A DNA stretch of 64,000 bases from a virus (Duplodnaviria > Heunggongvirae > Uroviricota > Caudoviricetes), in IMG/VR virus record IMGVR_UViG_3300032330_001609, positions 133,975 to 197,974 of that record; one strand, 5' to 3'. The notes under the pieces are model-generated. The model saw only the letters and a list, made by a program, of their open reading frames with translations. It was not told where the DNA came from and searched no databases. Within the stretch, counting starts at the first letter, position 1. Each line of letters opens with the position of its first letter. Below, piece by piece: positions 44,374-50,968 of the stretch. A program made the position numbers and the translations under genes.

Positions 44374-44940
44374 ATGAACTTAAACGAAGAACTATCAAAA
44401 ATGAAATCGATTATGGGTATCAATGAGAATAAACAATCATATCCATACTCTTGTGTAATGTTATACTTTAATCCGGATGCGATTACAGAACTACACAACA
44501 AAATAAACCCTGAGGACTTATACGTGGAAGAAGATGGATTCGGTTTGGAACCGGAATCACACTGTACTCTATTGTATGGATTACACGACAATGAGGTAAC
44601 ACCGGAACAAATAGAACAAATATTGGGTAACAAAACCTTCACAACTTGTAAAGCTCACAACCTATCTTGTTTCAACAATCCAAAGTATGATGTGTTAAAG
44701 TATGATATAATGGGGGACAATCTAAATGAAACAAATGAGGAGTTAAAACAATTCCCATTCACAAGTGATTACCCTGACTATCATCCACATATGACAATCG
44801 CATATCTTAAACCGGGCAAAGGTAAAGAATATATTGATATGTTGGGTAATGACCACAAAGAAATGTGGATGGCTCCACAACACGCTGTTTATTCAAGAAC
44901 AAATGGTGAAAAATTAAAAATTCCTGTAAGAATTGACTAA
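44374..44940 (+). CDS. 2H phosphoesterase (LigT / 2'-5' RNA ligase-like)
   Basis: Two H-x-T-x motifs (HCTLLY and HMTIAY). The N-terminal leader MNLNEELSKMKSIMG is shared with 46878, 50075 and 50507. Confidence 0.6.
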   Translation: MNLNEELSKMKSIMGINENKQSYPYSCVMLYFNPDAITELHNKINPEDLYVEEDGFGLEPESHCTLLYGLHDNEVTPEQIEQILGNKTFTTCKAHNLSCFNNPKYDVLKYDIMGDNLNETNEELKQFPFTSDYPDYHPHMTIAYLKPGKGKEYIDMLGNDHKEMWMAPQHAVYSRTNGEKLKIPVRID

Positions 44941-44968
44941 ATAAATTTGGTGGATTAAAAAATAATAT

Positions 44969-44976
44969 TATCTTTG
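44969..44976 (+). promoter_or_regulatory. Bacteroidota-type -7 box
   Basis: aataatattatctttgtaccc before 45005. Confidence 0.55.
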
Positions 44977-45004
44977 TACCCAATATTAATTAAAATAAAA
45001 AATT

Positions 45005-45520
45005 ATGATTTCAGAAGGGCAGTTTTTGATTGGTTTGTTAGTTTTATTAACAATTGGGTTAACAGTATTATTTTATAAGATGTCGAAAGGCGAAGAAATA
45101 CCAATACTTTTGTTAATGCTTATGGCGTTTGCTAGTTCGTTGTTATTAAGTATAGGTGTTTTTACTTGTGTCAGATGGGTAGATTCAGATACTACTGAGT
45201 ATTATTCCCGAAGAGCAAACATTGCATCAATAAAGAATAGTAATGAGGTTAGTGGTAGTTTTACGTTGGGTTGTGGTACAATAGAGCAAACAGAGTATTA
45301 CTACTATTATTACAAATCAGTTGATGGTTATGTAAGAGGGAAGAAACCGGTTGATAAAACATTTATTGTTGAGGATGGGTCTGACAAACCACACGTTGAG
45401 ATTAAAATGACACATTTTGAATCAAAGTCGGGTTTATTCGACTATCACGATGAGGAAGGTGATAAATATAAAATAGTGGTACCAAAAGGTGCTGTGGTTA
45501 ATAAATTTGAGGTGTATTAA
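45005..45520 (+). CDS. membrane protein
   Basis: Two TM segments at the N-terminus; host-type promoter at 44969-44976. Confidence 0.5.
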   Translation: MISEGQFLIGLLVLLTIGLTVLFYKMSKGEEIPILLLMLMAFASSLLLSIGVFTCVRWVDSDTTEYYSRRANIASIKNSNEVSGSFTLGCGTIEQTEYYYYYYKSVDGYVRGKKPVDKTFIVEDGSDKPHVEIKMTHFESKSGLFDYHDEEGDKYKIVVPKGAVVNKFEVY

Positions 45521-45522
45521 TT

Positions 45523-46137
45523 ATGATAGTAAATACAATTGAGTTCCCACAACCGGTTGGGGTAAAATGTAATATGATGCCGTTCATCCAAGGTGATAGT
45601 TCATCATTACCGGAAGAGTACAAATCCTATTCAAAGATAGTTGATGAGAACTATCTTGAGAAAGGTGAGATTGGTTATCTAACCATAGATGAATCATTCG
45701 TTGATGGTGGGAAAACGCAAAGAGGTTACAACTCCAAGGGGATTGATAGAAACGTCCACATAGAAGTCGGAAGATATGAGAATAAAAACCGATGGGGTGG
45801 AAGTGGTGGTGGGTCATCTTGGGGTGGTAGAAACCATACCTTATTAGATGATGACACGATGGTATTGATTGCCAACAACATTTCTGATACTTGTAGAGTA
45901 TGGGATACCAAAGAGATGTCGTATACTGATGATGGTGATTTGAGTGAATACATAGACAGATATCCGGAGAACACCGGTAGATTGTTAAAGTCGGGTGAGG
46001 TTGCAAAGATAAGTATTTTTACACCACACGAGTGTGTTTCACAAAAAGAATCTAAGTACAGACAATTCTTCAGGATTGTTGGTAAAGGTGTGACCGGGAG
46101 AGAAGAATATTTTACAATTAATCCTTTATTAAATTAA
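45523..46137 (+). CDS. hypothetical protein
   Basis: 204 aa. Confidence 0.55.
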   Translation: MIVNTIEFPQPVGVKCNMMPFIQGDSSSLPEEYKSYSKIVDENYLEKGEIGYLTIDESFVDGGKTQRGYNSKGIDRNVHIEVGRYENKNRWGGSGGGSSWGGRNHTLLDDDTMVLIANNISDTCRVWDTKEMSYTDDGDLSEYIDRYPENTGRLLKSGEVAKISIFTPHECVSQKESKYRQFFRIVGKGVTGREEYFTINPLLN

Positions 46138-46139
46138 TT

Positions 46140-46310
46140 ATGAAACATATTATAAATTTATTAGTGATACTAATATTGACAGGTTTTTCGGTGGGAATTG
46201 CATATCTACAAGTCAATAATCCAAAAGATGTTTGGTTTTTGGCTTACCTACCATTATGTATTTTTATGTTCCTTTGGGGTCTAAAACTTGATGGTGATTA
46301 TAAAAATTAA
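46140..46310 (+). CDS. small membrane protein (56 aa)
   Basis: Translated by hand (MKHIINLLVILILTGFSVG...); its start sits 2 nt after the upstream stop. Confidence 0.35.
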   Translation: MKHIINLLVILILTGFSVGIAYLQVNNPKDVWFLAYLPLCIFMFLWGLKLDGDYKN

Positions 46311-49436: not shown

Positions 49437-49474
49437 TAATCACTATGTCAAAGAACAAAAATGGTGGATTACTA

Positions 49475-49837
49475 TCACACCATTTTGATTGTTCCAATTT
49501 CTATTCTCGCAGGGATAGAAAATAAGGTAAATGATTTTTGAATATCTTCTTTTACATAAGTTCTGATGTATTGGTTTCTTCTTCGTGGTGACCACCAATA
49601 ATCTTTTATATAACGCCATTCCTTATCTTGTGTCCAATATTTATCTGATACTTCAAGATTAACATAAAGAATTCTGTTCCAAGCAAAATAATCGTCCTTA
49701 AACTTAACCCCTTTAGCTTTATAATTAAATTGGAACCACTCATCCCTTTCAACCATTCCGGTTATAGGGTGTTTTTTAAGATACTTCTTAATGTGGGGAA
49801 TAATGTTGGCTACGTAAATTTGGTCTTTGTTATCCAT
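49475..49837 (-). CDS. hypothetical W/Y-rich protein
   Basis: 120 aa. Confidence 0.5.
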   Translation of the reverse strand: MDNKDQIYVANIIPHIKKYLKKHPITGMVERDEWFQFNYKAKGVKFKDDYFAWNRILYVNLEVSDKYWTQDKEWRYIKDYWWSPRRRNQYIRTYVKEDIQKSFTLFSIPARIEIGTIKMV

Positions 49838-50058
49838 ATTATCTAAACATTGGGGTTAAGTACTCAATTAAGTATTTTGCGTAAGTGGTTAAAAGTTCGT
49901 TACCATCAAAAATGAAAGTGTCTTTAGAATTAACCACAGCATTTTGATATTCTTTTTTCAATCTTGAGAATGTTGATGAATCAACTGACATAGTATTTGA
50001 CATAACGGATTATTTTAATTAAAGTACAAAGATACAAAATTAAAACTATTCCGCCAAA

Positions 50059-50073
50059 TAATATATTTATCAA
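50059..50073 (+). promoter_or_regulatory. GATATTTAT-class motif
   Basis: aatatatttatcaat before 50075. Confidence 0.45.
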
Positions 50074-50074
50074 T

Positions 50075-50503
50075 ATGAACTTAATCGAGAACATAGAAAG
50101 AATCAACACCTTAATCTCTGAAGATAAAAAAGGCGAGACCATCAGAAATTTAATTGACAAGATGGGAATTGCCGACGCCATTAAATTGGTGGGAAATTAT
50201 TATATGGTTGAGCCATACTTAAAAGAGATTGACAAAGTAAATTATATTAAAGAAAAAGTTTCCCAAATCTGTGATGAGTTTGGTGCAAATGGTTTTGGTC
50301 TTGTTGAGGTTGATTCCGCACCAATTTTTTATAGTGAAGATGAAGATGAATTAAGACAAATAGAATATTTAGGTAGAAAACAACTTTATGTTGACGTTTA
50401 TTCTTCAGATACTAATTCTAACTTAGGTGATTTCAAAGTTAATTATGAAAGTTTACCGGGACAAATACTTGATGAGTTGGTTGAGGTATTCATAAACTAC
50501 TAA
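50075..50503 (+). CDS. MNLxENIxRI-class protein
   Basis: MNLIENIERINTLISEDKKGE. Confidence 0.55.
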   Translation: MNLIENIERINTLISEDKKGETIRNLIDKMGIADAIKLVGNYYMVEPYLKEIDKVNYIKEKVSQICDEFGANGFGLVEVDSAPIFYSEDEDELRQIEYLGRKQLYVDVYSSDTNSNLGDFKVNYESLPGQILDELVEVFINY

Positions 50504-50506
50504 GAT

Positions 50507-50968
50507 ATGAATTTACAAGAGAACATACATAGAATCCAATCGTTACTAACGGAGAACCGGGAGGAAATGATTAAGAATATGATAGACAAACACGGATTAT
50601 ATCACGCCATCAAATTAATGGGGGGATATGAAAATGTGTTACATTTTATTGACCACGAAAAAATTGATGATGAAGAAAAAATAATAACAATAAAACATAT
50701 TGTTAAAGAATTGTCGGATTTAATGGGTGAAAGCGGAATATCTGTATATGAAAGTGGTTTATCACCGGTTAGATATAGTATTGATTCGTATGAAGAAAAG
50801 ATTATAAACTATTATGGTAAAACAAGAGTTTCTATTGATGTTTTTGGTGGACATAAATATGAAGACCTTGTCGGTACTTACGCAATAGATTATGAAAATC
50901 TTCCCAAAGATGTTTTAGATAATGTTTTTATATGGATGATTGACGCATTAGAACAACACTATAAATAG
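50507..50968 (+). CDS. MNLxENIxRI-class protein (paralog of 50075)
   Basis: MNLQENIHRIQSLLTENREE; shares ...HAIKLMGGYE / DAIKLVGNYY and the ending with 50075. Confidence 0.55.
   Translation: MNLQENIHRIQSLLTENREEMIKNMIDKHGLYHAIKLMGGYENVLHFIDHEKIDDEEKIITIKHIVKELSDLMGESGISVYESGLSPVRYSIDSYEEKIINYYGKTRVSIDVFGGHKYEDLVGTYAIDYENLPKDVLDNVFIWMIDALEQHYK

Follow-up and report, generated by a model that had tools for sequence, protein, structure and literature searches.

Why do proteins that have little else in common begin with the same few residues? This question is raised by a 64,000-nucleotide stretch of viral DNA (positions 133,975 to 197,974 of the IMG/VR record IMGVR_UViG_3300032330_001609; the whole stretch is referred to here as the window), in which about a fifth of the genes encode a protein with one of three short N-terminal leader classes. 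The virus is an uncultured jumbo phage. On sequence grounds, the leaders are a real, modular and strongly selected N-terminal address. As to what is addressed, and where, we tentatively lean towards an expanded set of T4-like capsid-targeting propeptides, for which docking, cleavage, packaging and injection are inferred from sequence and by analogy with T4.

Class B leaders, MNLxENIxRIxS(L/M), are encoded by the genes that begin at positions 44374, 46878, 50075 and 50507 of the window, and class C leaders, M(K/R)xLIxxIL(K/R)E, by those at 39928, 40323, 40664 and 19666; genes are referred to here by these coordinates. Class A, MK-hhh-(T/S)-E (where h is a hydrophobic residue), was found on 13 further genes, and looser versions are present on approximately eight others, for example 11440 (MAKRFIISEDE), 12901 (MKQLINES) and 18871 (MKHVILTEKQ). 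The class B leaders are themselves trailed by a class A-like core (LISEDK, LLTENR or MGINENK), and the three classes therefore share one ending. A preliminary description of the window had listed nine of these gene starts with their leader strings; all were correct save for small letter corrections, namely that residue 11 of 50507 is Q and that 63192 begins MKLIITE, not MKIIITE.

The leaders are not a chance or compositional effect of an AT-rich genome. When all six frames of the window were scanned, the class B and class C peptide patterns matched only at Met1 of the open reading frames (ORFs) named above. Degenerate DNA patterns for class B and class C gave three matches each, compared with none in 100 dinucleotide-preserving shuffles. 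The core [ILVMF][ILVMF][TSN]E is approximately 10-fold enriched in the first 20 residues of the window ORFs (20 of 1904 positions, versus 17 of 16684 elsewhere), with a Fisher P value of 4e-11 that is inflated by paralogy.

When the bodies were compared without their leaders, most could not be linked to one another. The exceptions are 50075 and 50507, which are paralogs (blastp 1e-17, hhalign probability 100 %), and the bodies of 46878 (hhalign probability 99 %) and, more distantly, 40664 (probability 95-97 %), which are related to a small alpha/beta family that usually bears class A leaders. The bodies of the other class C proteins, 39928, 40323 and 19666, are unrelated. The three class B companions of 44374 had been described as unrelated; this is true of the 44374 body, which is linked to none of them, but not of 50075 and 50507, nor of 46878, given its place in the small family. 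The body of the K-rich protein 63192 is indeed unrelated to that of the family; it matches DUF5872 (PF19197, 64.6 bits against a cutoff of 27.5, E=1.6e-17) and is unlinked to the rest. The earlier identification of 44374 as a 2H phosphoesterase was borne out by a match to the Acb1 family PF23474 (E=4.4e-8, 33.4 bits against a cutoff of 27), which begins at residue 62 of the protein and position 35 of the profile, and by the presence of both HxT motifs (HCTLLY and HPHMTIAY). The match to Acb1 in PDB is weak (E=0.19). From its domain and motifs, 44374 is an Acb1-like 2H phosphoesterase with putative activity against the cyclic oligonucleotide-based antiphage signalling system (CBASS).

The same pattern extends well beyond the window. 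The degenerate class B DNA pattern was found in at least 119 IMG/VR stretches, on contigs of up to 335 kb, and the 103 distinct complete class B proteins recovered from this source fall into 40 body clusters that are unlinked by blastp. Their leader consensus is MNLQENIxRIKEMMG(I/L/V)(I/L)(N/T)E. Class C leaders (MKELIRxILKEE) likewise head many bodies in IMG/VR, 108-536 aa in length. One body family can also carry different leaders. The 50507 family includes members with class B, class C (L062_8470; L numbers are our labels for sequences), hybrid (L065_647) and class A-like leaders, and in one protein of 536 aa, 400 residues separate the class C leader from the C-terminal 50507-family domain. 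Members of the small alpha/beta family have leader A, B or C, or none (61318 and 62907).

Five ortholog pairs between the window and related contigs have swapped or stacked leaders, and the junction is always hh(N/S/T)E. The class C protein 39928 is 63 % identical over 125 aa to a class B ortholog in L065, and the class A protein 28685 is 52 % identical over 152 aa to a class B ortholog in L086. In the comparison of 58004 (class A) with its class B ortholog in L097, the alignment opens at ISENKIE = ITESNIE. The ortholog of the Acb1-like 44374 (...MGINENK) in L078 has a short leader, MLKLSNLLTEGKK (MLKLSNLLTE), and the ortholog of the DHH-family protein 12901 (MKQLINESG) in L013 has an extra class C leader, MKNLIKSVLREESRRLISESG (65 % identity over 465 aa). 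The counterparts of the Acb1-like enzyme from Maribacter phage Molly and the 484-kb metagenomic phage LR756508 are leader-free, lacking the N-terminal extension of approximately 20 residues found on the jumbo phage enzyme. A tblastn alignment of the Acb1 leader to LR756508 was an artefact, as the ORF there begins MASEDNRKFEYGC.

The leader is also strictly N-terminal. The complete IMG/VR was scanned for NLQENIxRIK with no requirement for a start codon, and in every one of the 51 distinct contexts the string lies either directly at the start codon or a single residue away; it is never internal. The preceding codon is ATG in 48 of the 51, GTG in one and ATG-GAA in two.

Invariant class B residues are encoded by mixed synonymous codons (AAC/AAT 0.63/0.37 at N2, GAA/GAG 0.57/0.43 at E5, three codons at I10 and four at G15), and no segment of the 50507-family proteins is better conserved than the leader, with bodies down to 33-50 % identity. 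These two observations place selection on the leader peptide, and the varying synonymous sites rule out a purely nucleotide-level element. The leader codons differ from body usage (AAC at N2 and N6, ATA at I7 in 91 %, GGG enriched at G15), which is consistent with a recombination-borne spread of leader DNA, or some pressure on the 5' end. The modular N-terminal signals on differing cargo that were proposed in the preliminary description are thus supported, and more strongly than was proposed, by the 40 unlinked bodies, the swapped orthologs, the strict position and the protein-level selection.

Searches of other collections returned little. A class B leader profile (4 x 30 residues) gave only 36 matches among 1.84 billion proteins, nearly all at residue 1, because the profile is too short; two of the 36, including the top one, are long repeat proteins and uninformative. 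No match to the class B consensus, and hence no cultured carrier, was found by tblastn in the INPHARED collection (50,697 phage records), nor did the 50507 protein find a match there, and a full-text literature search for the motif strings returned no paper. In LR756508 (L004), paralogous 250-283-aa proteins encoded at 8250-17293 begin MKLK(K/R)xLxxL(L/I)SE(G/S/D)R. This motif is analogous, but LR756508 is an unrelated huge phage.

A common folded N-terminal domain, which the preliminary description had itself raised as the contrary possibility, was not found. Neither Pfam nor PHROGs has a domain on the leaders. In the AlphaFold2 (AF2) model of 41257 (predicted local distance difference test score, pLDDT, 87), residues 1-6 (MKVVIT) are without secondary structure and residues 1-4 have a pLDDT of <50, and in the model of 50507 (pLDDT 90) the leader helix has a pLDDT of ~70 compared with ~93 for the body. 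Together with the leaderless orthologs and the 400-residue separation, this rules such a domain out. Sec, Tat and lipoprotein signals were also ruled out. The criterion was a hydrophobic h-region of 7-15 residues following a basic n-region, and the leaders have no hydrophobic core, being charged and amphipathic with a mean Eisenberg hydrophobicity of -0.5 to +0.1. True signal peptides are present elsewhere in the window, for example on 22521 (minus strand) and 36962.

A shared cleavage-type motif had been suggested as a check, and [ILVM]xE, with the Glu at residue 15-20, was found in 103 of 111 class B leaders (93 %) compared with 23 % of body windows. The commonest endings are ISE, INE, LNE, ITE and LTE. 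Column information in class B is 2.5-4.3 bits at positions 9-15 and <0.85 bits from position 20, beyond the Glu. The class A ending is I-(T/S)-E at positions 5-7 and that of class C is L-(K/R)-E; among 112 ORFs beginning M[KR]hhh, position 6 is T, S or N in 108 and position 7 is E in 88. In T4, the gp21 protease cuts after L/I-x-E, and the internal proteins, otherwise diverse, have N-terminal capsid-targeting sequence (CTS) propeptides of 10-19 residues (PMC9026906, PMC3012670).

In the capsid-loading explanation, the three leader classes would be alternative forms of one N-terminal propeptide module. The constant part would be a terminal element of two hydrophobic residues, T, S, N, K or R, and Glu, and the optional part an amphipathic helix of class B (MNLQENIxRIKEMMG) or class C (MKxLIxxIL). 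The leader would dock the cargo on the scaffolding core of a T4-type prohead, a Peptidase_S77 (gp21-like) prohead protease would cut after the Glu, and the freed cargo would be retained in the head and enter the host with the DNA. Candidate cargo includes the Acb1-like nuclease, the DHH phosphoesterase, the K-rich DUF5872 protein, peptidoglycan-binding proteins and many small ORFans. The capsid targeting and injection proposed earlier are thus plausible, given the L/I-x-E ending and the T4-type head genes in related contigs.

These head genes were found on contigs reached via the class B leader (L079, L044, and L155 with L121). They encode a gp23-like major capsid protein (phrog_138, 8e-68; T4 gp23 in PDB, 2e-24), a gp20-like portal, a gp21-like Peptidase_S77 (1e-22; for example L079 6798-7481), sheath, baseplate and terminase proteins, and an acidic protein without a family match in the scaffold (gp22) position (L079 5493-6710). 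On a 316-kb IMG/VR contig, a class B gene (L121) accompanies that of the capsid protein (L155). The N-terminal region of the capsid protein aligns weakly with the T4 gp23 delta domain, and a single invariant LINE|AA is found where the delta domain meets the mature protein. This is the motif of the leader ends (GIINE, GLINE). Homologs of 63192 and 63779 (68-80 % identity) adjoin the gp23-like gene in many loci, including L181, L167 and L168.

The leaders resemble the CTS that gp21 removes from T4 IPI, IPII, IPIII and Alt in several ways. Both are short and lie at the very N-terminus, as a propeptide of 10-19 residues in T4 and a putative one of 7-20 residues here, both are common to unrelated, fast-evolving and often small or basic proteins, and both end in aliphatic-x-Glu, the gp21 cleavage motif. 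The lineage here also has an S77 protease, T4-type portal and capsid genes and the unmatched acidic ORF in the scaffold position, and anti-defence-type enzymes are among the cargo. However, there is one class in T4 and here there are three interchangeable classes plus hybrids, approximately 20-25 % of the window genes are tagged compared with a handful in T4, and the residues just past the putative cut are conserved in class A.

In phiKZ-like giant phages, a gp21-related protease cuts many proteins of the head interior after Glu, whole paralog families among them (PMC9026906, PMC5694885). The propeptide systems of phiKZ gp175 and SPN3US gp245 are alike in that head, inner-body and ejection proteins of a jumbo phage are cut after Glu, a cut that is putative here. 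They differ in having S/A/G-x-E sites and long propeptides with no shared N-terminal consensus, and the head genes of the present lineage are T4-type, not phiKZ-type. Encapsulin cargo-loading peptides provide another parallel, in that unrelated cargo reaches the inside of an HK97-fold shell by means of a short terminal peptide, but they are usually C-terminal and uncleaved, have another consensus, and the shells are not virions.

The cargo encoded in related contigs includes peptidoglycan (PG)-binding and DSP-phosphatase proteins, P-loop kinases and a pterin-4a-carbinolamine dehydratase. Two leader proteins of these contigs have sub-threshold ART-PolyVal matches (E ~2e-5) that recall T4 Alt. 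Several cargo types, namely the Acb1-like enzyme, the PG_binding_1 proteins without signal peptides, the DSP phosphatase, the proteins with weak ART-PolyVal matches and the basic DUF5872 protein, would fit effectors that are delivered with the DNA.

A number of observations weigh against capsid loading. Approximately 21-29 of the 112 window ORFs carry a leader, which implies about 100 tagged proteins per genome, far above the handful in T4. No similarity of the leaders to any characterised CTS was detected, though a direct comparison with the T4 CTS was not made, and [ILVM]xE is a low-information motif. In class A, conservation persists beyond the Glu (position 13 is I, L or V in 105 of the 112 M[KR]hhh ORFs), and the helix at residues 7-22 is integral to the fold in the AF2 model of 41257, which leaves a tag of only 6-7 residues ahead of the putative cut. 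Some of the cargo, the P-loop kinases and the dehydratase, are ordinary cytoplasmic-looking enzymes, and the 'TEDQ' of the dehydratase overlaps the first helix of the domain itself (Pfam match from residue 7). On the 332-kb scaffold to which the window belongs, no head genes were located: the scaffold is absent among the 120 listed of at least 8000 matches to the gp23-like protein, and a 590-aa ORF that adjoins the DUF5872 cluster in L127 has no PHROG match. The link to a T4-type head thus rests on related contigs. Finally, the promoter-like motif ATATTTAT (see below) precedes leader and head genes but many others too, and is therefore no firm sign of late co-expression.

The leaders may instead stay uncleaved and act as N-terminal tags for interaction with, or sorting to, a different partner that all the carriers have in common. 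This could be a chaperone, an AAA+/ClpP protease (with the leader as a degron), a compartment or membrane patch of the phage, or a common target in the host. Docking would be through beta-augmentation of the hh(T/S)E strand, with extra affinity from the helices of classes B and C. We consider this rather unlikely. The modularity of the leaders, their confinement to the N-terminus, their swapping and the selection on the peptide are equally compatible with any model in which a receptor is shared. That so many genes are tagged, and that some cargo is enzyme-like, is easier to reconcile with a role in the cytoplasm than with packaging. The amphipathicity check suggested in the preliminary description also points this way, as the class B and C leaders would form only moderately amphipathic helices (hydrophobic moment 0.5-0.76). 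A ClpP-family protease gene (L127 18008-18742; PF00574, and PHROG 'head maturation protease' families) is on the same scaffold, approximately 8 kb beyond the right end of the window, and the start of Met, a basic residue and three hydrophobic residues resembles a described ClpX N-terminal recognition class. However, an uncleaved tag leaves unexplained why conservation stops exactly at the Glu, with an aliphatic residue at P3, and why the leader motif is identical to the predicted capsid maturation site of the lineage. A candidate receptor was not identified, and it is not obvious how PG-binding cargo that lacks a signal peptide would reach the periplasm.

The ClpP gene lies amid small ORFs, away from any recognisable head module, and its product could be a second protease that acts on N-terminal tags. 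A match of 6098-7462 in the window to a PHROG 'head maturation protease' is an artefact of an acidic coiled-coil stretch, with no significant domain.

A third explanation, which we regard as improbable, is that the shared N-termini are mainly a by-product of evolution or expression. Gene 5' ends, with promoter/stem-loop cassettes, would be the recombination sites at which ORFans are shuffled, or the 5' ends would optimise initiation on (nearly) leaderless mRNAs, the peptide itself being of little function. The motif ATATTTAT bears on this. It is present in 37 copies in the window. About 29 of these precede a gene start by 4-27 nt, and the distances fall into two classes, 4-5 nt (often from the ATG) and 13-18 nt; at the shorter spacing the predicted transcripts would be leaderless or nearly so. 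The motif is similar to the Bacteroidota -7 box TAnnTTTG and also to the T4 late TATAAATA. A similar motif also precedes terminase, portal, protease and scaffold genes in related contigs L154 and L155. A G/C-rich stem-loop (CCCCC...GGGGG, often followed by a T-run) is present before 8 of the 27 sites examined.

In T4-type phages, promoter early stem-loop (PeSL) cassettes mediate gene shuffling (PMC2839356, PMC4122927). The arrangement here is PeSL-like in that a repeated promoter-like motif, often with a G/C-run stem-loop, precedes ORFan genes in plastic regions (PMC2839356), and by this analogy such cassettes are a plausible vehicle for moving gene 5' ends. PeSLs, however, are intergenic, whereas here the module reaches 20-60 nt into the coding region, where it is conserved as protein. 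The swapping of leaders between orthologs needs recombination at gene 5' ends, and the deviant leader codons (AAC, ATA, GGG) suggest common descent or nucleotide-level pressure. Against a mere by-product, the amino acids are invariant although synonymous sites vary, in homologs that are 33-50 % identical the leader has changed less than the body, and leaders are equally conserved where the upstream motif is missing, as at 44374 and 50507. R9, G15, the terminal Glu and the heptad-like hydrophobic spacing lack an obvious reason at the RNA level. Recombination accounts for the spread of leaders, not for their retention.

That the leaders are the first structural element of the fold, a strand and helix cap recurring in small alpha/beta domains of an AT-rich genome, is very improbable and largely refuted, since, although the class A helix from E7 is part of the fold with position 13 conserved, the dehydratase TEDQ overlaps a native first helix and the 46878 and 40664 bodies belong with the class A genes, leaders are found on Acb1, DUF5872, PG_binding_1, DHH, kinase and many unlinked bodies and up to 400 residues from the body domain, orthologs outside the clade and some family members have none, and residues 1-6 are unstructured in AF2 with no Pfam or PHROG domain on the leader.

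The leader genes of the window, the leaderless members of the small family and the promoter-like and stem-loop elements are listed in Table 1.

Table 1. Positions of leader-bearing genes, leaderless family members and repeated upstream elements in the window
Coordinates	Strand	Feature	Basis or remark
44374-44940	+	Class B-type leader MNLNEELSKMKSIMGINE (~residues 1-18); Acb1-like 2H phosphoesterase	Sequence, Pfam PF23474
46878-47273	+	Class B leader MNLHENIDRIKSIMDE; small alpha/beta family body (usually class A)	hhalign probability 99 % to 41257, 61608 and 42620 families
50075-50503	+	Class B leader MNLIENIERINTLISE; 'IDKxGxxxAIKLxG' body family	Sequence, blastp, hhalign
50507-50968	+	Class B leader MNLQENIHRIQSLLTE; 50075 paralog	
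39928-40326	+	Class C leader MRELIKRILKEE	Sequence; L065 ortholog has class B
40323-40664	+	Class C leader MKDLIRQILREE; unlinked body	Sequence, body comparison
40664-41257	+	Class C leader MKDLIKKILREE; body distantly akin to small class A family	hhalign probability 95-97 %
19666-20607	+	Class C variant leader MKNLITKILKES; unlinked 313-aa body	Sequence, body comparison
41257-41598, 41600-41929, 41929-42237, 42237-42617, 42620-42994	+	Five tandem class A genes, one small family	
51718-52020, 52036-52395	-	Two class A genes, same small family as 41257	
24642-25163	+	Class A leader MKIIITES; unlinked 173-aa body	
28685-29215	+	Class A leader MKIKITES	L086 ortholog has class B
58004-58324	+	Class A leader MKFIISE	L097 ortholog has class B
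61608-61913	+	Class A leader; small-family body	
63192-63782	+	Class A leader MKLIITE; K-rich DUF5872 protein	Pfam PF19197
63779-64000	+	Class A leader MKIIITESQ; gene cut off at window end	Full 123-aa gene in L127
61318-61587	+	Small-family member without leader (leaderless control)	
62907-63152		Small-family member without leader (leaderless control)	
11440-11790	+	Leader-like N-terminus MAKRFIISEDE...LLNEQ; PG_binding_1 protein, no signal peptide	Pfam 1.5e-10, domain from residue 29
12901-14307	+	Short leader MKQLINES; DHH-family phosphoesterase	L013 ortholog: extra class C leader in front
46866-46873	+	ATATTTAT, 4 nt before 46878 ATG	
6086, 38048, 39915, 50063, 54389, 57992, 61596, 63180	+	Other ATATTTAT copies	
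52407, 46845, 27256	-	ATATTTAT copies	
11360-11420, 18800-18850, 38000-38050, 39870-39915, 57320-57375, 58830-58880, 63130-63180		G/C-run stem-loops	

The window is identical in sequence to a stretch at ~256-320 kb of the ENA scaffold KRAE22-1_scaffold_1 (ERZ28594640; 332,109 bp), and the same gene order is found in a syntenic 326-kb scaffold (L001) and in a contig of an NCBI metagenome-assembled genome (L002). The G+C content of the window is 31 %, and its small genes are densely packed, mostly on the plus strand. The scaffold flanks around it include T4_Y16D, tail-collar, amidase and ClpP genes. Because of lipoprotein-type signal peptides and because the closest cultured relative of the lineage's capsid protein (43 % identity) is in Flavobacterium phage immuto, a Bacteroidota host is suggested. 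In that phage (vB_FspM_immuto, L230), two adjacent small genes at 24569-25456 encode gp231 (MIKLIDLLTESL...) and gp230 (MKKQILSEQFKRMQFLAGIITESE..., containing FLAGIITESE), which have leader-like N-termini. These are only 2 of the 86 ORFs in its first 50 kb. A gp20/S77/gp23 head module is present, and immuto could be used as a test system.

The glutamine synthetase encoded at 8665-9849 in the window is 43-55 % identical to those of 634-735-kb metagenomic 'huge phages' (LR756501, LR756502 and LR745206). Regions 4291-4894, 14669-15094, 16529-17269 and 30733-31299 include further auxiliary genes, for thioredoxin and glutaredoxin, and ORFs of a set of three judged by eye only as NUDIX-, CCA-adding-enzyme- and HD/MazG-like; none of these genes, the glutamine synthetase gene included, bears a leader. 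A 632-aa protein encoded at 47538-49436 combines two Laminin_G_3/LamG domains (PHROG 'virion structural protein') with a C-terminal tail that is rich in Cys (...CCSNDSG...GGCPQCGG), and its gene is in part 73 % identical to DNA of Synechococcus phage S-SKS1. At 27827-28642 (minus strand), a 271-aa protein has a run of CxxCxGxG-type repeats and is DnaJ zinc finger-like; a full DnaJ gene is upstream on the scaffold (L126 7812-8726). In Prochlorococcus phage P-TIM68 (L006), a 427-aa protein encoded between tail fibre-like and large terminase genes has both DUF5872 halves. An internal stretch of it, VKRVIERAEVLKILKSLEEN, ahead of a PTNPKLW segment, resembles the leader region of 63192, LIITERQETILEGLITEGEN, and may serve as a linker for internal processing.

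Scans of the whole window for Rfam families and tRNAs were empty. Two stretches of 0.5-0.9 kb, at 52773-53662 and 54862-55382, are without a convincing ORF, tRNA or Rfam match. Repeats of A/T-G/C runs are found there together with short inverted repeats, one of which is a 31-nt near-palindrome (53173-53235).

The phage group is abundant in the environment. For its capsid gene family alone, public data contain at least 8000 close relatives. It is conceivable, though we think it unlikely, that a clade of T4-related jumbo phages uses three recombining leaders as an 'address code' for about 100 proteins per genome that would be loaded into the capsid and delivered with the DNA, or alternatively as a code for a phage-built compartment or hub. 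If there is such a code, these phages would have an infection proteome that is made in advance and reshuffled rapidly, with anti-CBASS and other counter-defence enzymes in it. Should the cargo be loaded into capsids, the variety of proteins packaged by the clade would greatly exceed that of all phages studied to date. Every leader-bearing gene would then be a candidate injected effector, which would provide a sequence-only route to early-acting anti-defence proteins of uncultured phages, such as the Acb1-like enzyme, and the leaders could be used as they are to tag foreign proteins for loading into capsids. If left uncleaved, the leaders would still be an unexplained, strongly selected N-terminal address common to hundreds of protein families.

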